Origin: an uncultured Bacilli bacterium
GTDB taxonomy: Bacteria > Bacillota_I > Bacilli_A > RF39 > UBA660
Length of the DNA: 64,000 nucleotides
NCBI GenBank assembly: GCA_944332435.1
Contig: CALVJW010000002.1
Span: 8,353-72,352, forward strand
Reading direction: 5' to 3'
Part shown: positions 24,677-36,077 of the stretch, piece by piece
Layout of the letters: each line of letters starts with the position of its first letter
Position numbering within the stretch: the stretch's first letter is position 1
Position numbers and translations under genes: made by a program
The notes under the pieces: generated by a model
Databases searched by the model: none
Seen by the model: the letters and a program-made list of their open reading frames with translations, nothing else
Told to the model about the DNA's origin: nothing

Positions 24677-24689
24677 GATTATAAAAAAA

Positions 24690-25266
24690 ATGAATGGCTA
24701 TCCATATAGTAAACTTTGCGCCTTCAGGTCAAGTAGGTTTTCCCTTATCCTTACTCTCCGTTACCAGAAAAGCGGTTCCCCATTAAAAGGATAAATGTAG
24801 CGTCACCGCATACATGACTTGATTACCACTTAGTACACACTGCAATCCTACATGGAGCTACATTCTAGGAGTTTTCCTCAACAATCCTTTATTATTAATT
24901 CTCTTTTGCAGTAACAATTTCAACTTGCAATAACAAACGAATTGTGGCCACAATCAGTTTGCTTGATCAAATATTCCAAGCTACCACTCAAGACAAGCTA
25001 CACTACTCGTAAGTTACCTCACATAGTAGGTTCAAGCCTAAGTCGTCATAGCTAAAACTATAACAAGATTAGGTCTCCGCGAAAAATTGGGTCGTGATCG
25101 TATGCCATTACGGTCGCCCAATTTCTCTTCCTTTCAGCACCCACCCCAAACTGGGCGTATGAAGCAAGCACCAAAAGTTTCATAGATATGCTCTTTAACG
25201 GATTTTTAGCCCCGTCTTCATAATAAATAAAATTGACTAGAATAATGTGCCATTCATTTATTTATA
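24690..25266 (-). ncRNA. large structured ncRNA, candidate OLE (ornate, large, extremophilic) RNA
   Basis: About 570 nt non-coding island at roughly 45% GC in a 28% GC genome, with many local hairpins. It is bounded by a consensus sigma-A promoter on the minus strand and a T8 run at 24693-24700. No ORF. The next gene encodes an OapA-like membrane protein. Confidence 0.5.
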
Positions 25267-25272
25267 TGAGTA

Positions 25273-25389: not shown

Positions 25390-27477
25390 TTATTTTTTTA
25401 CTTTTACTTTTGTAGTTGGTAAAATATCAAATTCAATTACTTGCTGCTCTTTATCAGAACGAATTAATCGTAATGTTACCTTATTACCAATTTTGTAAAC
25501 CTTACTATGATTTGGATTTTCATAAGTAAGTTTCTCTTCATGATAACAAACATCCTCTAATGTTTCGGCATTCACTTGTCCCGCAATTAAATTTTTTAAT
25601 GTAACATAAATTCCTTTTTTATCTAACCATGTTATTTTACCTTCAAACAATTCTCCAATATGAGATTCTAAGTATTCAGCACATTTCATTTTTTCTACGG
25701 TTCGTTCACATTCCTCAGCTCTTCTTTCACAATAAGACGCTTGTTCTGTCATTCTTTCATATTTCTTTTCCATCGCATTAAATTTAGAACGATTGATATT
25801 ACCTTTTAACATTTCTTTTAAAGCTCGATGAACCATTAAATCTGGATAACGACGAATCGGCGATGTAAAATGTGTATAATTACGACTTGCTAGTGCATAA
25901 TGATGTTGATTGGAATTAGAATAACAAGCTTTTTTCATACTACGAAGAAGTAAGTTGGCAAGAATATCAAATTTTTCTGTTTCTCGAAAACGTTCCAACT
26001 CTTTTTGTAAAGATTTTGCTGAAACAGGTCCATGACTAGTATCAATACGTACTGGTAATTCTAATTTATTTGCTGTTTCAACAAACATATTTAACTTTTC
26101 TTCATCTGGTTCTTCATGTACTCGATAAATAAATGGTAAGCCTAATTCTACCATACGAGTTGTTACCGCTTCATTCGCAGCAATCATAAAGTCTTCGATG
26201 ATTCGTTCTCCTTCACCACGCTGATAACTTTTAATAGCCGTTGGCTCTCCTAATTCATTTGTATCAATGATTCGTTCTTCCGTATCAAAATTAATACTAC
26301 CACGTTTCTTTTTGGCTTTTCTTAAAATATGTGATAATTCTAACATAGTCTGTAACAATTCAGTAAATTCTTGATAATCTTCTTTAGGATTACCTTTTAA
26401 TGCTTCATTCACATTATGATATGTCATTCTCTTTTTAGAATGAATAACACTTTCAAAAATATCGGTATGAACAATTTGACCTCTAGTATTAATTTCCATC
26501 TTACATGTCATAGTAAGCCGATCAACACCTGGATTTAATGAACAAATACCATTTGATAATTTACTTGCAAGCATTGGTGTTACATATCCTGGTGTATAAA
26601 GACTAGTACCTCGTTTATATGCTTCTTTATCAATTTCCTTTCCCTCTATTACATAATGAGAAACATCAGCAATATGTACTCCTAATTCATAATTTCCATT
26701 TTCTAATCTCTTAATCGATATTGCATCATCAAAATCTTTTGCCGTATCCCCATCAATAGTAACAATCATTTCATCTCTTAAATCAACTCGATTTTCAAGT
26801 TCTTCTTCTGTTACTTGTGTTGGTATTTCTTCTACTTGATCCATTACTTTTTTAGAAAATTGATCAGGAATACCAAGTTCTTTCATAACTGACAGTACAT
26901 CGACTCTTGGATCATTTTTATGACCTAATACTCTAGTAACTGATCCAATATAATAGTCTTTTTTATACTTTTTTCCAATTTTAACTAATACTTTATTATC
27001 AATATATGCTCCACCCATATTTTCTAATAATACGGGAAATGGATATTTAGGATTATCTAATTTAGCAAAAAATTTGCCATCTTGTTCATATACCATTCCA
27101 ACATGTTCTTGCTCTTTTATCACTCTATCTACTACTTTACCACGTAATTTTTGTTGATTACTAGATTGTAATTCAACTAAAATGGTATCACCATCTAAAG
27201 CTCCATGCAAATCAGATTGCCTCACAAGAACTTTCTTTTCACCATTTACTAAAAATCCAAATCCTCTTTTTGTCATATATAACTTTCCAACTACATGATT
27301 TTTATCGGTAGTCTTTACATAATGTTTTGGTGTAATTTCTTTTACCTGTAATGTCTTTTGTAATTCTTGTAGTGCTAACGTAACTTCTTCTTCTGTTACT
27401 TCTAATTTCTTACTTAATTCTGCAATGGATATTCCATGTTTTGCTTTTAACAATTGTAATACTTGTTCTAAATTCAT
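25390..27477 (-). CDS. rnr: ribonuclease R
   Basis: N-terminal HTH/CSD, RNB domain with TIDGDTAKDFDDAIS and HFTSPIRRYPDL, and a C-terminal S1 domain. Confidence 0.9.
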   Translation of the reverse strand: MNLEQVLQLLKAKHGISIAELSKKLEVTEEEVTLALQELQKTLQVKEITPKHYVKTTDKNHVVGKLYMTKRGFGFLVNGEKKVLVRQSDLHGALDGDTILVELQSSNQQKLRGKVVDRVIKEQEHVGMVYEQDGKFFAKLDNPKYPFPVLLENMGGAYIDNKVLVKIGKKYKKDYYIGSVTRVLGHKNDPRVDVLSVMKELGIPDQFSKKVMDQVEEIPTQVTEEELENRVDLRDEMIVTIDGDTAKDFDDAISIKRLENGNYELGVHIADVSHYVIEGKEIDKEAYKRGTSLYTPGYVTPMLASKLSNGICSLNPGVDRLTMTCKMEINTRGQIVHTDIFESVIHSKKRMTYHNVNEALKGNPKEDYQEFTELLQTMLELSHILRKAKKKRGSINFDTEERIIDTNELGEPTAIKSYQRGEGERIIEDFMIAANEAVTTRMVELGLPFIYRVHEEPDEEKLNMFVETANKLELPVRIDTSHGPVSAKSLQKELERFRETEKFDILANLLLRSMKKACYSNSNQHHYALASRNYTHFTSPIRRYPDLMVHRALKEMLKGNINRSKFNAMEKKYERMTEQASYCERRAEECERTVEKMKCAEYLESHIGELFEGKITWLDKKGIYVTLKNLIAGQVNAETLEDVCYHEEKLTYENPNHSKVYKIGNKVTLRLIRSDKEQQVIEFDILPTTKVKVKK

Positions 27478-27479
27478 TT

Positions 27480-29204
27480 CTATTCCCCCTGACAACTTTG
27501 TTTTATATTGTGTAATTTTAAAACTTTCTGTTTATCTTGCTGTTTTCCATATTGTATTTCAATTAATTTTTCAACTAATTCTTGATAAGTAGAAATTTCC
27601 TCTTTTTTATCATAAATTAACAACTCTTTTAAAATTATCATATTAATTAATGCAAAATAATTTCTAAGTGGTGTTGTAATATGAGTATATTGATTCACTC
27701 CTAATCCTCGGTGACCAACATTTTCATAACTATAATATGAACGTAAATTCAAGTTTTCAATTTTTCTTCTAATCGAAGATTCTTCATTTTCTTGATTACA
27801 TTTCTCTTCAATTTGTTCTACTGCCTGTTTTGTTACTTCTGATTCATTATTTCGATAAATAAGTGGTAAATCTCTTTCTAAAAAGGCTTTTGCTAAAATT
27901 GTACCTAATAAAATTTTGAATTCACTTACTACCATATATTTTGACTCTGGTTCATATTTCCTACTGTACTCTAAATAATATTTTAACTCTTTTACTTTAT
28001 GATATCTTTTTTTTGAATAATTTGATTCATGCAATACTTTTGCAATCTCATAAATCCTTATTTTTTCACTATTTTTCCCTTTTCTCGCTCGTCTAACTTT
28101 ATCTTTTATGCAATCATAACTATAATTTTTAGAAACAGAAATATTTGCCGGATATACAAGTACTTCAGTTAATTGATTTTCATAATTAAATATCATCTCA
28201 TAAGCAATGACTGCTCTTTCTTTCCCTGAATCTAATGAAAAATTTTGTTTTGCATATTCATAGTCAAATACATAATCTTTTCGATAAACAAACCAATTTA
28301 AAAATGCTTCCTCTATCAATTCTTCCGATTCCATAAATTGTTCTGTAGGATCTGTAATATACATCGTAATATGTGTTAAACCATCTTCTTCATAAATAGA
28401 AAGTGCATCTTCTCTAAGACCTGTACTTTCTTCATCAATCGTAAAAATTTCTAATGAGGAAGGTATTTTTTTAGATGACAAAAATTGCATTGAATAGCGA
28501 TTAAATTGTGGTAATTCACGATATTTCATCTGAATGCAAATATGCATCAATTCATTTAATCGATAACGATACTTTAATGGAATTTCTGTTAAATGATTGC
28601 GAATATAGTAATCAAGTTTTTGAGCAAACTCATTTGACCATGACTCAATATGTTCTGTTTCTAATAATAAGTAGCGAAGCAAAGACTTCCAATAACTATA
28701 TTCTGCATAATCATCCGTAAATAATTGTTCTAAATAAGTTTGAAAAAAATCATCTAATATTATTTTATCTTGAATAAATAATGCTAAAAAATCAGGTTGG
28801 TTCATGAGATGTCTTACAAGACTTTCTTGATGGTAATAATAAACGCTTAAATACCACTCATCTTTGCGTTTAAAATCATCATTTGAAATAATTTTCTTCG
28901 TTTTCGACAGAGAAAATATTCGATCTTGTATTTCCTGATATAAGCGATAATTTGGTAAATGACAATTTTTTCCATCATCAATATAGAATCCATATAAGTA
29001 ATCTACTTTTTGTAAAACACGAAATAAATATTTTGGAAATTCTAACTGATTATTTTGTTCTATTTCATCTAACATGCTATTTAAATAATTCAAAAGAAGT
29101 TCAATTGTTTGTTCAATATTTATACCAAAAAAATCTTTTATCTCTTCAACTGTAACTTCTTTTTTTCTTAACATAGCTGTTAATACTCTTTGATTCATAA
29201 CCAA
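27480..29204 (-). CDS. divergent RNB-domain (RNase II/R family) paralog, probably catalytically degenerate
   Basis: 574 aa. RNB motif I reads TIDEESTGLREDALS where rnr has TIDGDTAKDFDDAIS. Motif IV reads YTHITTPLRNY where rnr has HFTSPIRRY. No CSD or S1 domains. Overlaps the rnr start by 16 nt. Confidence 0.5.
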   Translation of the reverse strand: MVMNQRVLTAMLRKKEVTVEEIKDFFGINIEQTIELLLNYLNSMLDEIEQNNQLEFPKYLFRVLQKVDYLYGFYIDDGKNCHLPNYRLYQEIQDRIFSLSKTKKIISNDDFKRKDEWYLSVYYYHQESLVRHLMNQPDFLALFIQDKIILDDFFQTYLEQLFTDDYAEYSYWKSLLRYLLLETEHIESWSNEFAQKLDYYIRNHLTEIPLKYRYRLNELMHICIQMKYRELPQFNRYSMQFLSSKKIPSSLEIFTIDEESTGLREDALSIYEEDGLTHITMYITDPTEQFMESEELIEEAFLNWFVYRKDYVFDYEYAKQNFSLDSGKERAVIAYEMIFNYENQLTEVLVYPANISVSKNYSYDCIKDKVRRARKGKNSEKIRIYEIAKVLHESNYSKKRYHKVKELKYYLEYSRKYEPESKYMVVSEFKILLGTILAKAFLERDLPLIYRNNESEVTKQAVEQIEEKCNQENEESSIRRKIENLNLRSYYSYENVGHRGLGVNQYTHITTPLRNYFALINMIILKELLIYDKKEEISTYQELVEKLIEIQYGKQQDKQKVLKLHNIKQSCQGE

Positions 29205-31435: not shown

Positions 31436-31527
31436 ACACTCACCCCACTAATGTTAGTTTATCACATTTAAATCTATTAAAAAAGATGAAATGCAAAATT
31501 TCATACTTTAGTTTTATCTTTTCAGAC

Positions 31528-31755
31528 TTATTTATCTTGATTTGTTTTATTACGATGTATCATATAATCATCATAAAACAATTTATCAGGTTTTTTTCCA
31601 AAGATCTCTGCAATTCGAACAGCCATATCATAAGACAATCTACGGCTACCATTTTCTATTTGACAATAAAATGGTTTACTAATTCCTAATCGTTCTGCCA
31701 TATCTTTATTTGTTAATTTCTTTTTATAACGCAATTCTTTCAATGCATAATACAT
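31528..31755 (-). CDS. XRE-family HTH transcriptional regulator
   Basis: 75 aa with an HTH_3 motif (LTNKDMAERLGISKPFYCQIENG). Confidence 0.75.
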   Translation of the reverse strand: MYYALKELRYKKKLTNKDMAERLGISKPFYCQIENGSRRLSYDMAVRIAEIFGKKPDKLFYDDYMIHRNKTNQDK

Positions 31756-31887
31756 ATTGTGACCTCCACTTCTTCACACCGTTATTATAACATAAAAGTA
31801 CTTTTTTAGTCTACTGTCAGTGTACTGTTTTTGTGGTCGTTTTATGAGAAAATGAGATTGGAAATATTTACCAACTATGGAGGGGTT

Positions 31888-32127
31888 ATGGTTACAAATA
31901 AAGATATTAGCAAACAATATAGTATTTTTAGTTCAAATATTAAATATTATCGAAAACAATTACATTATACACAAGAAATATTAGCAGAAAAAACCGATTT
32001 GAGTATTTCTTATATCAAACAAATTGAGTCTCGTGCAGAATATACAAACGTTACTTTTACTACATTATCTAAATTAGCAATGGCATTAAACGTAACCATC
32101 AAAGATTTATTCATTGAAAGAAAATAA
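31888..32127 (+). CDS. XRE-family HTH transcriptional regulator, divergent from the previous one
   Basis: HTH_3 motif (YTQEILAEKTDLSISYIKQIES). GGAGGGG RBS before ATG 31888. Confidence 0.7.
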   Translation: MVTNKDISKQYSIFSSNIKYYRKQLHYTQEILAEKTDLSISYIKQIESRAEYTNVTFTTLSKLAMALNVTIKDLFIERK

Positions 32128-32157
32128 TACCTAGCGCATGCAGGTATTATTTTTTTC
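32126..32157 (+). terminator. rho-independent terminator after the plus-strand XRE gene
   Basis: AATACCT-agcgcatgc-AGGTATT hairpin followed by a T7 run. Confidence 0.6.
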
Positions 32158-33090
32158 ATACATCATACATTGTTTTAAAAAACTAAGTTTTTCAAAATCA
32201 TTACTAAAAATCAAATTCGATAATTCTAATGCTTTTTCACAACAATCAGAACATTCTTCATATAATCTTTTTTCAATATAAAAATCTAATTCTTTTTCTG
32301 TTAATTTTACTGCTTCTAACATTTTTGCAAACAATCGAACAATATTTTGAATTAAAATAGGATTTAATGTACCATTACAACTTCTAATTTCAATCGTAGG
32401 AAGCGTACTACTAACACCAGATAAAAAATGATATAAATTTTTCATATTTAAACAACAACTTTTATCTAGATTACAAACTAATCCTGTAATCGCATCACTT
32501 GCTTTTCCCTTACTCATTACATTTAAAATATAATCTCTAATTGGAATCGCATATTCAAGATAATAATCTCTTATCTTTTCTTTTCCTACTCGACTAAATT
32601 CATAAATAACATCTTCGTAAGCACACCACAACATTAAAAATCGATTCCAATCTTCTAATTTAAAATCTAGGCGATGAAAATCAACATGCAAATGTATCGA
32701 ACACTTCTCATTAGTTGTTCCTTCTAATGACTGTACGATTTCACACAACTGTTTTAATTCATACCAATCATTTTCATCATTATAAAAGATTGGCGATTTC
32801 AGTTCTCCACCATAATGATAATCTGTAACAGATTCATCTACATCTACGTACCAATCTTGACCATATACTAACTCACTTACTTGATAAAATTCTTTTATTT
32901 TTCCTTCTACCTCTTCAAGAGAAGCTTCCGTAAATTCTATTTCGATTCCATATTGAAACGGAATTGTTAAATCTAATTTTGGTTGATACATAAATTGAAA
33001 TTCTCCTATAGATTTTTTTAAATAAGGATTTTTGTTTGTAAGAATAAAAGAGTTCTTTCCTAATTTACTAATATTATAATTCCAAGACAT
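32131..33090 (-). CDS. putative amidoligase (GS-like carboxylate-amine ligase fold, PF12224-like), paralog B
   Basis: 319 aa. Motifs FQYGIEIEF (ExE), YGGELKSP and CSIHLHVDF (HxH). About 55% identical to the upstream paralog. Confidence 0.4.
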   Translation of the reverse strand: MSWNYNISKLGKNSFILTNKNPYLKKSIGEFQFMYQPKLDLTIPFQYGIEIEFTEASLEEVEGKIKEFYQVSELVYGQDWYVDVDESVTDYHYGGELKSPIFYNDENDWYELKQLCEIVQSLEGTTNEKCSIHLHVDFHRLDFKLEDWNRFLMLWCAYEDVIYEFSRVGKEKIRDYYLEYAIPIRDYILNVMSKGKASDAITGLVCNLDKSCCLNMKNLYHFLSGVSSTLPTIEIRSCNGTLNPILIQNIVRLFAKMLEAVKLTEKELDFYIEKRLYEECSDCCEKALELSNLIFSNDFEKLSFLKQCMMYEKNNTCMR

Positions 33091-33102
33091 AATATCCCCC
33101 CC

Positions 33103-34062
33103 TTAATCTTTTCTTTTTACTTTCATATTACACTGCTTTAAAAAACTATATTTTTCAAAATCATTTGTAAAAATTAAATTCGATAATTCTAATTCTTTTT
33201 CCCTGTAATTAGGATGTTTTTCATATAATCTTGTTTCTATATAAGGATCTAATGCTTCTTTTTTTAAATTCACGGTTTCTAACAATCTACTAAATACTCG
33301 AACAATATTTTGAATAAAAATAGGATTTAATGTACCATTACAACTTCTAATTTCAATTGTTGAAATAGATGTTTTCATGCCAGATAAAGAGCGATATAAG
33401 TTTCTCATATTAAGACAACTCTGTTTATTTAATTTACCGATTGGATCAGTAATCGCATCACTTGCTTCTCCCTTGCTCATTACTTTTAAAATATAACCTT
33501 TAATAGGACGAGCAAACGTAAAATAGCAATTTCTCATGTTCTTTTGTCCTACACGACTAAATTTAAAAATAACATCTTCATAAGCACACCATAGTTTTAA
33601 AAACCGATTCCAATCTTCCATAGAAAAATTTAAACGCCTAAAATCAACATGAATATGCACAGAACACTTATCGTTTGAAAAACCACCTAACTGTTGAACC
33701 AACTTGCATATTTGTGCTAATAAAGTCCAATCTTTTTCTTCATTATAAGAAATTGGCGATTGTAACTCACCACCATAAATTCCTTCTGTTACTGATACAT
33801 CTTTATCCACAAACCAAGTTTTTCCATAAATTAATTCTTTTGTTTGATAAAATTGTTTCAATTTATTTTCAACTTCTATCCGAGAAACACCAACAAACTC
33901 TAATTCAATTCCATATTGAAAGGGAATTTTTAAATCAATTACTGGTTCATACACAAATTTAAATTTTTTTATTTTGCTTTTTATAATAACATTTTCTTTA
34001 ATAAGACGAAAAGAACTATGATTTAATATTTGCAATCCTTTTTTACCATTAAACTCCTTCAC
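33103..34062 (-). CDS. putative amidoligase (GS-like carboxylate-amine ligase fold, PF12224-like), paralog A
   Basis: 319 aa. Motifs FQYGIELEF, YGGELQSP, CSVHIHVDF. GTG start at 34062 after an AAGGGGGA RBS. Confidence 0.4.
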   Translation of the reverse strand: MKEFNGKKGLQILNHSSFRLIKENVIIKSKIKKFKFVYEPVIDLKIPFQYGIELEFVGVSRIEVENKLKQFYQTKELIYGKTWFVDKDVSVTEGIYGGELQSPISYNEEKDWTLLAQICKLVQQLGGFSNDKCSVHIHVDFRRLNFSMEDWNRFLKLWCAYEDVIFKFSRVGQKNMRNCYFTFARPIKGYILKVMSKGEASDAITDPIGKLNKQSCLNMRNLYRSLSGMKTSISTIEIRSCNGTLNPIFIQNIVRVFSRLLETVNLKKEALDPYIETRLYEKHPNYREKELELSNLIFTNDFEKYSFLKQCNMKVKRKD

Positions 34063-34090
34063 TGTTAATCCCCCTTTTTTTATAGGTGTT

Positions 34091-34118
34091 ATTGTAACAC
34101 AAATTTAAAAAAATGCAA
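34091..34118 (-). promoter_or_regulatory. sigma-A promoter of the amidoligase pair
   Basis: Minus strand: TTGCAT, 16-nt spacer, TGTTACAAT (extended -10), about 25 nt before the RBS. Confidence 0.5.
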
Positions 34119-34147
34119 GAAAAAAAGAATCATACTATCTATGATTC
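34117..34147 (-). terminator. rho-independent terminator of yebC
   Basis: GAATCATA-gatag-TATGATTC hairpin followed by a T7 run on the minus strand. Confidence 0.6.
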
Positions 34148-34863
34148 TATAATTCTACGTTATGATATACATGTTGAACATCTTCTACATCATCTAACAT
34201 AGTAAGTAATTTTTTAAAAGTATCCAATTCTTCTCCTGCTAATGTTATTTTTTCTTTTGGAAGCATTACAATTTCATCCATTTCAAATTCAACATTAGGA
34301 ATTTTATTATTAATTGCTTCTTTAATTTCAAACAAATTAGTTGGATCTGCATAAATCACTGTTAATCCATTATTTTCTTCAATATCATCTACATCTACAC
34401 CAGCATCAATCATTACTTCTAATGCTTGTTCTGCATCCATTCCTTTAAATCCTACAATACATAAATGTTCATACATATAAGCAACACTTCCAATTGCTCC
34501 CATTTTTACATGACATTTATTTAATACTGCACGAATACTACTTACAGAACGATTGACATTATCTGTTAAACAATCAACGATAACCGTTGAACCACTTGGT
34601 CCAAATAGTTCATATCTAGCACTTGTATAACTCTCATCAGCACCACTATTTACTTTATCAATTGCACGTTTAATAATGTCTGATGGTACTTGTTCTTTTT
34701 TTGCACGTTCTACTAAACGTTTTAAAGAAGCATTACTTTCTAATTCTGTACCACCTGTTTTTGCAGCTTGGTAAATTTCTCTTGCATACATTGAATATAA
34801 TTTAGACTTTGCTGCTCCTGTTTTTTGAATACTTGCTTTTCTTACTTCATACGCTCTTCCCAT
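34147..34863 (-). CDS. yebC: YebC/PmpR-family probable transcriptional regulator
   Basis: 238 aa. Conserved N-terminus MGRAYEVRKASIQKTGAAKSK and the DUF28 architecture. Confidence 0.85.
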   Translation of the reverse strand: MGRAYEVRKASIQKTGAAKSKLYSMYAREIYQAAKTGGTELESNASLKRLVERAKKEQVPSDIIKRAIDKVNSGADESYTSARYELFGPSGSTVIVDCLTDNVNRSVSSIRAVLNKCHVKMGAIGSVAYMYEHLCIVGFKGMDAEQALEVMIDAGVDVDDIEENNGLTVIYADPTNLFEIKEAINNKIPNVEFEMDEIVMLPKEKITLAGEELDTFKKLLTMLDDVEDVQHVYHNVEL

Positions 34864-34979: not shown

Positions 34980-36077
34980 TCATAATACCTTTTTTGCTGA
35001 CATTTCTTTTTCTAATAATTCTTCTAATATTGATGATGAAGCTTTTGTAAATGGGTGTAATATAATATGCATCATGTCATCATATTCTAAAGGTTGTAAC
35101 GTAACTTCTATCATATCAGTCATTACTTCTAATCGTTCAAATAAGCGTAAAAATTTATTCGTAATATTCTCCTGAATTCTTTTTTGTTTTTCCTCTAATT
35201 GTTGTAAAAGTTCTAATTCTTCTTCCTTCGTATTTGCTTTTTGTTTAGCAATTACTTGGTGTGCTTCTTTTTTAGCTTGATAACGAATTGGTAAATATGG
35301 AACAACCATTACTGTTTCAATCTCATGGTCATAAATATATTTTAAGAAAAAAGCCATGGTCATAAGAAACGATGGTGTTACATTTCTCAACTTATTTCGA
35401 TAATAACTATGATACATTTCTTCATCCACTGGCACTTTATTAAAATTCATTTTAATAATCTGTTCAATCTCTTCTGGTTTTTTGAAATGTTTTCCTTCCT
35501 GAATATTATAAATATAGCAAGTTTGATTTTGAATTCCAAATGATATATTTGGTAATTCATATTCTAAATCATCCTTTTTTATGATAGAAGAAAATCGATA
35601 TGGCGTTTCTAACATAATTCCTTGTTTTTCAATTTTTGCAGAACAAGAAAGTTTATTATTTTCTAAAAAGTAAGAAGTACTTGGTTCCTGCAGTAATTTC
35701 TTTCCACTTTCTAAAAAATCAATTCTCCTTTTCAAATATTGTTCTGGATTTAAAAAATCATCGTATGTTGCATTATTAAATGCAAGTGCAATTATTTTTT
35801 TTACATATTCTTTCTTGCTAATAATTTCCTCATCAATGGGATAAGTATTCATCATTTCCATTACATACTCTTCTAATAATTGATAAAATTGATTTTCCCG
35901 ATGAATTATTAATACCGGCATCATAAGATTACTTGTTACTCCTACATCATATCGAATATTATATGTAAATGTTATTTCTTCTTTTGTATAAGGATCATAT
36001 TCTTTAATATAGACTTTTCCTTCTTTTACGCTAGGTATGATTTCTTCTTCAAATATTTTTTTAATGATTAATTCCAT
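34980..36077 (-). CDS. hypothetical protein, translationally coupled to rnc
   Basis: 365 aa soluble protein with no recognisable motif. Its start overlaps the rnc stop by 17 nt. Confidence 0.4.
   Translation of the reverse strand: MELIIKKIFEEEIIPSVKEGKVYIKEYDPYTKEEITFTYNIRYDVGVTSNLMMPVLIIHRENQFYQLLEEYVMEMMNTYPIDEEIISKKEYVKKIIALAFNNATYDDFLNPEQYLKRRIDFLESGKKLLQEPSTSYFLENNKLSCSAKIEKQGIMLETPYRFSSIIKKDDLEYELPNISFGIQNQTCYIYNIQEGKHFKKPEEIEQIIKMNFNKVPVDEEMYHSYYRNKLRNVTPSFLMTMAFFLKYIYDHEIETVMVVPYLPIRYQAKKEAHQVIAKQKANTKEEELELLQQLEEKQKRIQENITNKFLRLFERLEVMTDMIEVTLQPLEYDDMMHIILHPFTKASSSILEELLEKEMSAKKVL

Follow-up and report, generated by a model that had tools for sequence, protein, structure and literature searches.

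Two tandem, recently duplicated PF12224 amidoligase-like genes at a variable chromosomal slot of an uncultured Bacilli bacterium

A stretch of 64,000 nucleotides from an uncultured Bacilli bacterium (GTDB lineage Bacillota_I, Bacilli_A, RF39, UBA660; GenBank assembly GCA_944332435.1, contig CALVJW010000002.1, positions 8,353 to 72,352 of the forward strand), hereafter the window, encodes two putative amidoligases in tandem on the minus strand. These open reading frames (ORFs), here called A1 and A2, encode 319 aa each and are separated by a gap of 12 nt. The upstream paralog A1 (33103–34062) begins with a GTG codon, which is ATG in its relatives, and holds a PF12224 domain at residues 49–253 together with a C-terminal helical module at residues ~247–311. 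The downstream paralog A2 (32131–33090) begins with ATG and holds PF12224 at residues 46–255. A first-pass annotation, made from the sequence alone, had placed both genes at these positions, which are borne out, and had estimated their mutual identity at ~55%. The paralogy stands, but the figure does not, as the two proteins share 61% identity across 301 aa by BLASTP (E=3e-134). The ExE, GGEL[KQ]SP, and HxH motifs that it quoted are all present, and are read in the pair as YGIELEF/YGIEIEF, GGELQSP/GGELKSP, and CSVHIHVDF/CSIHLHVDF.

The 5' boundary of this pair is an intrinsic terminator of the upstream gene yebC (34119–34148, minus strand), formed by the stem GAAUCAUAG/UAUGAUUC and a U-run, with the yebC stop codon inside the hairpin. 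Its folding energy is -11 kcal/mol (z -2.9; z scores compare the folding energy with that of shuffled sequence), and it is conserved, with compensatory changes in the related locus L011 (loci used for comparison are designated by L numbers). Directly beside it lies a promoter-like element (34086–34118, minus strand) with a -35 box TTGCAT (34118–34113), a 16-nt spacer, and an extended -10 element TGTTACAAT (34099–34091), in which the hexamer TACAAT (34096–34091) follows a TG at 34099–34098. The dedicated sigma-A promoter of the first-pass annotation is thus a real element, while its notation as TTGCAT-16-TGTTACAAT is off by 3 nt. The -10 box is enclosed by the palindrome GTGTTAcaaTAACAC (34100–34086, minus strand). 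Both genes have the strong poly-G ribosome-binding sites (RBSs) ascribed to them, GGGGG at 34070–34074 for A1 (minus strand, 7 nt upstream of the GTG) and GGGGGGG at 33096–33102 for A2 (minus strand, inside the intergenic gap). On the other side, a bidirectional terminator hairpin (32124–32150) covers the last codons of A2, including the stop codon, and the 3-nt gap to a convergent gene for an XRE regulator (XRE79), with folding energies of -13.3 kcal/mol for the minus strand (z -3.0) and -17.4 kcal/mol for the plus strand (z -6.0). The terminator and promoter upstream, the RBSs, and the hairpin downstream make it well supported that A1 and A2 are a separate two-gene transcription unit, in agreement with the operon proposed earlier.

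Both proteins belong to PF12224 (Amidoligase_2), with scores of 62 bits for A2 and 58.1 bits for A1 against a gathering cut-off of 22. The matches cover profile positions 4–242 and 4–237 of 245, and PHROG families named 'amidoligase enzyme' also match both proteins, so the amidoligase assignment made in the first pass holds. This family of glutamine synthetase (GS)-like amidoligases was reportedly predicted by Iyer, Abhiman, Burroughs and Aravind in 2009 (Mol Biosyst 5:1636). Two independent AlphaFold models were obtained, one from eight sequences with a predicted local distance difference test score (pLDDT) of 74.6, and another from 135 diverse relatives with a pLDDT of 93.4 and a predicted TM-score of 0.92. 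When both models were compared by Foldseek with the PDB, the only significant neighbours were YbdK (1R8G, 1TT4), glutamate-cysteine ligases (GCS), GshAB, PafA/Dop, and glutamine synthetases (probability 1.00, E 1e-5 to 4e-3, TM-score ~0.45), and every match with a probability of at least 0.98 fell in this GS/GCS/YbdK/PafA superfamily of carboxylate-amine ligases. The GS-like fold that had been proposed is supported by these comparisons. In the viral structure library BFVD, the top 50 matches are phage amidoligases, down to E 2e-10. None of the PDB chains matches a deep profile of the family at the sequence level, and PF12224 appears to be a family for which sequence comparison detects no solved structure.

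Conservation was measured in a set of 152 diverse representatives sharing at most 50% identity. Residues E53, E55, E99, and E162 are conserved in 100% of them, and H136, H138, R177, E237, R239, N242, and Q251 in 97–99%, so that the ExE, GGE, HxH, and ExR residues are all conserved. A1 and A2 both retain every one of these residues, and both copies appear to be catalytically intact. The conserved positions fall on the predicted strands 50–60, 96–101, 134–140, and 235–242, in an alternating-residue pattern which we take to be that of the metal, ATP, and phosphate site of GS-fold ligases. By analogy, the conserved residues of A1 and A2 would map to this site.

The tandem arrangement itself is young. 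The pair is present in the relatives L001–L004 and L011, while L005–L009 hold a single amidoligase gene of 322 aa at the same site. The synonymous divergence (dS) between the paralogs is 0.62, which falls between the values against L011 (~0.5) and against the single-copy lineage (0.80). The single-copy protein shares 66% identity with A2 but only 55% with A1, and identity to L001 is 83% for A1 and 91% for A2, the former evolving faster. As read from these divergences, the duplication is recent and lineage-specific. The single-copy orthologs at the same site and the order of the dS values also argue that the ancestral functional unit was one standalone enzyme, which speaks against the tandem pair as the functional unit. 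As a separate observation, residues ~258–282 of the A2 ortholog of L011 (5801–6760 of that locus) read like its A1 (KLKKEELDSYI.TRLYEENP.CYEK), which suggests gene conversion between the tandem paralogs in that lineage.

The genes lie between yebC and dnaB, in a slot flanked by housekeeping genes that encode ZnuA, YidD, RNase III, and YebC on one side and a DnaB-like protein, DnaI, and two RNB proteins on the other. The closest relatives are metagenome-assembled genomes of uncultured gut Bacilli. In the window the slot spans 31436–34146 and also contains two divergent regulator genes. XRE79 (31888–32127, plus strand), an HTH_3 regulator convergent with A2, appears in the ORF list as a 98-aa protein starting at a TTG (31831–32127), and most likely starts at the ATG at 31888, preceded by the RBS GGAGGGG and giving 79 aa, as it is called in relatives. 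XRE75 (31528–31755, minus strand), an HTH_19/HTH_3 regulator, is divergent from XRE79 and lies upstream of dnaB. A hairpin with a T-run is observed at 31481–31522 between XRE75 and dnaB, as it is in L034, and XRE75 probably has its own terminator and is not co-transcribed with dnaB-dnaI.

Gene content at this slot differs among relatives. In L034 (6269–7000; DnaB 88% identical), the order is yebC-XRE-XRE-dnaB, with no amidoligase and a clean 39-bp junction of two terminator hairpins. L035 (5092–7000; DnaB 72%) carries a gene for a polysaccharide deacetylase of 576 aa and no XRE genes, L036 (1233–1620; DnaB 66%) has one helix-turn-helix (HTH) gene only, and in L037 (DnaB 61%) pheST lies directly upstream of dnaB. 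In L038 (DnaB 72%), the order amidoligase-XRE-XRE-dnaB is found with an amidoligase only 36–38% identical to A1/A2, and in L040 the order yebC-amidoligase-XRE with one 32–33% identical. The slot is therefore a hotspot at which the clade varies in gene content. Because the site is empty in L034 and occupied by a different gene in L035, the amidoligase is accessory in this lineage. An arrangement limited to very close relatives was initially considered, and was overturned by L038 and L040. This set of loci argues that the amidoligase arrangement at the slot is old and has been repeatedly lost, and that the amidoligase in it changes far more quickly than the genes around it.

The ratio of nonsynonymous to synonymous substitution (dN/dS) points in the same direction, being 0.24–0.31 for A1/A2 versus 0.02–0.09 for YebC, DnaB, RNase III, ZnuA, and XRE75 at comparable synonymous divergence. 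At the protein level, the amidoligase evolves 5–10 times as fast as its housekeeping flanks and keeps its catalytic residues. The most variable residues are 180–209 and 260–289, off the catalytic strands. Positive selection was considered and rejected, as no 20-codon window has a pN/pS above 0.71. By these measures A1 and A2 are functional genes under relaxed but real purifying selection. Such fast evolution is not peculiar to the amidoligase, since the 574-aa RNB protein and the products of hyp171 and hyp365 evolve about as fast.

Some of these other genes are worth describing. The gene hyp365 (34980–36077, minus strand; dN/dS ~0.22) encodes a 365-aa protein without a Pfam, PHROG, or PADLOC match, and its first 17 nt overlap with the 3' end of the gene for RNase III. 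It is found in the window, in L011, and in L035 (371 aa, 48% identical), and is absent from L003, L006, and L034. Downstream of dnaI, two tandem genes encode RNB-domain (RNase II/R-like) proteins, the first at 27480–29204 (minus strand) and the other an ORF of ~700 aa at ~25390–27495. In the shorter protein no OB, CSD, or S1 domains were detected, and its identity across lineages falls from 86% to 26% while that of DnaB falls from 98% to 72%. The window also contains a full-length OLE (Ornate Large Extremophilic) RNA at 24678–25269 (minus strand; Rfam RF01071, 435.6 bits, E 1e-124).

Amidoligase homologs seemed at first to be rare, as a word-indexed search returned only nine. This was overturned by an exhaustive HMMER search, which found 6,479 representatives (clusters at 50% identity) at E<=1e-3 and 478 at E<=1e-30. 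PF12224 is hence a large family, with ~6,500 such clusters matching the profile, and its members are common among phages, plasmids, and gut bacteria. The best 150 representatives are mostly of 300–355 aa (median 336 aa) and match the query from end to end. They share a C-terminal helical module of ~65 aa with the conserved residues F298, D/E303, K304, F307, and L308, which lies beyond the end of the Pfam model near residue 255. By these comparisons A1 and A2 belong to a large standalone subfamily, found mainly on the chromosomes of uncultured gut Bacilli.

The term standalone refers to the lack of recurrent partners. The typical neighbourhood of PF12224 genes in the Pfam description includes a GATase-like thiol peptidase or an AIG2/GGCT cyclotransferase, a feature that is not strictly defining. 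The first-pass annotation had remarked that the usual GGCT/Aig2 and thiol peptidase partners are absent, and this proved correct, as no GGCT, GATase, or peptidase partner was found in the window or in the loci of close relatives, and none recurs in about 30 related loci. Neither GGCT nor GATase nor any peptidase family recurs among the 79 genes lying within two positions of 20 distant homologs. The commonest neighbours of the latter are RNase J, SDR, DUF4417 (in Clostridia versions only), and MurG/MurB. As candidates for a conserved partner gene, the recurrent RNase J, SDR, and MurG/MurB genes and those for unannotated membrane proteins (C16, C18) were rejected, since all are absent from the window. 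A cluster in L013 resembling those for ribosomally synthesised and post-translationally modified peptides, with an amidoligase, two radical-SAM genes, and three ORFs of ~99 aa, was also rejected, its small ORFs being L21, Prp, and L27. The standalone subfamily would accordingly work without the GGCT, GATase, or SWIM/DUF4417 partners of the phage and plasmid versions examined.

Considering these data, the locus is probably a two-gene operon of recently duplicated PF12224 enzymes with a GS fold, which would act as accessory, standalone, ATP-dependent carboxylate-amine ligases. In the proposed mechanism, ATP and two divalent metal ions would be bound through E53/E55, E99, H136/H138, and E237 on the core β-strands. 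The carboxylate of the substrate would be phosphorylated to an acyl-phosphate stabilised by R177 and R239, and the attack of an amine on this intermediate would yield a gamma-glutamyl- or isopeptide-type amide, ADP, and Pi. We infer this ligase chemistry from superfamily analogy. Three points weigh against such a reading: no demonstrated activity for any member of the family was found in the literature searched; the TM-scores to solved GS-fold enzymes are just ~0.45; and the adjacency of amidoligase and XRE79 is kept where the amidoligase is only 33–38% identical, which may reflect a functional link. As to the substrate, a cytoplasmic small molecule or a cell-envelope precursor is preferred, with low confidence, over a phage-directed target.

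The possible link to the XRE genes deserves attention, as the first-pass annotation noted them beside the pair in proposing a possible modification or defence module. The pair does adjoin divergent XRE genes, and these encode real HTH_3/HTH_19 proteins. XRE79 lies beside the amidoligase in L001–L011, L038, and L040, and it is present without the amidoligase in L034. XRE75 is likewise retained without the amidoligase (L034) and without XRE79 (L036). The amidoligase promoter is nearly invariant in four lineages whose coding dS is 0.3–0.8, and the palindrome around its -10 box is the sole perfect match to GTGTTAcaaTAACAC in the window. A 12-mer, TGTTAYAATAAC, occurs in the window only at the amidoligase and XRE75 promoters, versus 0.07 occurrences expected, for a pattern picked after seeing the data. 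A third element, ACAGTACACTGACAGTAGAC, is conserved between the XRE genes.

A shared XRE operator at the amidoligase promoter was rejected on several grounds. TGTTAYAATAAC is mostly the extended -10 box, and at the XRE promoter of L005, L011, and L034 the bases at its end are not conserved. The outer arms of the palindrome are not conserved in L038 or L040. Finally, ACAGTACACTGACAGTAGAC is kept in L034, where there is no amidoligase, and is missing from the amidoligase promoter. The XRE proteins might control the amidoligase operon, but these elements do not support it, and the association of XRE79 with the amidoligase is positional. HTH_3 genes do not recur at the 20 distant loci, which argues that the adjacency of XRE genes is tied to the yebC|dnaB slot rather than to the amidoligase subfamily. 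The persistence of the XRE pair at the clean empty site of L034 and the absence of XRE neighbours from the 20 other subfamily loci also tell against the XRE genes as part of a module. Nor does the arrangement correspond to a type II toxin-antitoxin system, in which an XRE antitoxin would be in a co-directional operon: XRE79 is convergent with A2, shares with it a bidirectional terminator, and the XRE pair persists alone.

One alternative, an unlikely one, is that the standalone subfamily is a strain-variable modification enzyme not described before and controlled by the closely convergent XRE79, which enzyme would join a group through an amide bond to a protein or envelope target, with its rapid turnover and repeated duplication driven by conflict with phages or the host. 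A more specific conflict or defence module also looks unlikely. According to it, XRE79, and perhaps XRE75, would repress the operon until induction by phage or stress, whereupon the enzyme would modify a phage or host protein or a surface receptor and block infection, an arms race driving its change. This would account for the placement of XRE79, which is convergent and, wherever an amidoligase gene occupies the slot, lies 3–21 nt from the stop codon of that gene, even at 33–38% identity, as well as for the near-invariant promoter with its -10 box within a palindrome and the confinement of the 12-mer to two promoters. The amidoligase diverges far faster than its flanks, independent duplications are found in L015 and L024, and members of the family abound in phages and on pCW3-type plasmids. 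In addition, PMC11318856 refers to Iyer 2009 for the prediction that a phage amidoligase modifies a receptor and serves in superinfection exclusion.

However, neither A1 nor A2 has a match in PADLOC-DB 2.0, where the XRE proteins match generic HTH models only. The surroundings are not those of a defence or mobile island, with housekeeping flanks, a flat GC content of ~27% across the window, and no tRNA gene in it, although the slot is nonetheless variable between lineages. The XRE pair persists at the clean empty site of L034, and no XRE family recurs among the 79 neighbours of the 20 other subfamily loci. At the promoters, the extra bases of the 12-mer and the palindrome arms lack the conservation that an operator would call for. 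No region has a dN/dS above 1, the RNB protein and hyp365 diverge equally fast, and a convergent orientation is atypical of regulator-effector or toxin-antitoxin pairs. The defence role put forward in the first pass is therefore unsupported.

Ranking behind it, and doubtful as well, is a role in envelope tailoring, in which the enzyme would amidate, or add an amino acid to, the carboxylate of a cytoplasmic envelope precursor (a peptidoglycan stem peptide, for example, or a uronic-acid glycopolymer), resulting in a strain-variable surface chemistry. Several distant homologs have envelope genes no more than two genes away, namely murG-murB (L020, L027), a Bac_transf sugar transferase directly downstream (L014), GT2 glycosyltransferases, and BacA. 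Genes for two-transmembrane (TM) and polytopic membrane proteins flank that of the amidoligase in L013, L015, L024, L029, and L030, and the slot of L035 holds the polysaccharide deacetylase. The amidoligase has no recognisable signal peptide or TM segment, and would thus act on cytoplasmic precursors. Nevertheless, neither the window nor its close relatives have an envelope gene next to the amidoligase, each association is found in one or two loci only, and envelope genes are common in small genomes, which makes chance adjacency likely. No Mur-ligase-like or glycan-binding domain was detected in the proteins.

A role in core nitrogen or thiol metabolism, as a minimal substitute for glutamine synthetase or gamma-glutamylcysteine ligase in a reduced genome, is very improbable. 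YbdK, GCS, and GS are the closest solved folds, and A2 has a weak match to the YbdK family TIGR02050, but this match (16 bits, E 0.006) fails the cut-off of 176.4, and A1 has no match. A core enzyme would hardly be absent from the close relatives L034 and L035, show a dN/dS 5–10 times that of the housekeeping flanks, or be only 33–38% identical at a slot whose flanks are 72–84% identical. In addition, A1 and A2 are far smaller than GS and lack its N-terminal domain.

The least probable reading is a decaying remnant of a prophage or an integrative and conjugative element, made up of a cI/cro-like XRE pair and a moron gene of no current function, which the resemblance of the divergent XRE pair to phage repressor families, the frequency of PF12224 in phages and plasmids, and the variability of the slot might suggest, but which is largely refuted by a dN/dS well below 1 in every comparison, and which does not fit two intact ORFs with all conserved catalytic residues, a conserved promoter and RBSs, a window without integrase, att-like repeat, or tRNA, and a locus that stays stable between lineages with DnaB identities as low as 72%.

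Among the enzymes of solved structure, YbdK/GCS2 (1R8G, 1TT4) and the glutamate-cysteine ligases are the best matches (E 1e-5 to 1e-4, probability 1.00) and may share with A1/A2 an acyl-phosphate chemistry, although at a TM-score of ~0.45 and an identity of 11–14%. PafA/Dop have the superfamily fold in common with them, and PafA is a precedent for the ligation of a protein carboxylate to a lysine by a GS-fold enzyme. In contrast to PafA/Dop, A1 and A2 are much smaller and have no PF03136 match, and no Pup-like ORF or proteasome genes lie nearby. Literature reports that use the term amidoligase in connection with Klebsiella pneumoniae CfmP, argolaphos, and CTP synthase were set aside, as they deal with other folds.

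Within PF12224, phage amidoligase genes have been noted beside DNA-hypermodification genes, with no function assigned (PMC8989533). Phage PBC5 has a GGCT gene ~800 bp downstream of its amidoligase, unlike the window. The SWIM-amidoligase of pCW3-type plasmids of Clostridium perfringens (WP_003479695, 468 aa) shares the PF12224 core, with 26% identity over residues 50–285 (E ~1e-17), but has a SWIM zinc finger at its N terminus, and its gene comes after one for DUF4417 and lies near an orphan dcm methyltransferase gene, none of which is found in the window. About 100 of these plasmids carry DUF4417 and then the SWIM-zinc-finger amidoligase near dcm (L032; pCW3, NC_010937.1, 5374–7858), and the order DUF4417-amidoligase-HTH is also observed at the Clostridia loci L016, L017, L019, and L021.

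A1 and A2 resemble the family in matching it above threshold over the whole domain, in bearing the GIExE, GGE, HxH, and ExR signature, and in having phage 'amidoligase' models as their nearest structural neighbours. They differ from it in their chromosomal location within a housekeeping neighbourhood, their conserved C-terminal module, and the absence of a recurrent AIG2/GGCT or GATase-like neighbour. They are new members, and recent duplicates, of a known family without characterised biochemistry, and the window by itself adds one more member and a recent duplication rather than a new system. Lacking partner proteins, and with clear candidates for the catalytic residues and a model of high confidence, the standalone subfamily to which they belong offers a simple entry point to the ligation targets of PF12224.

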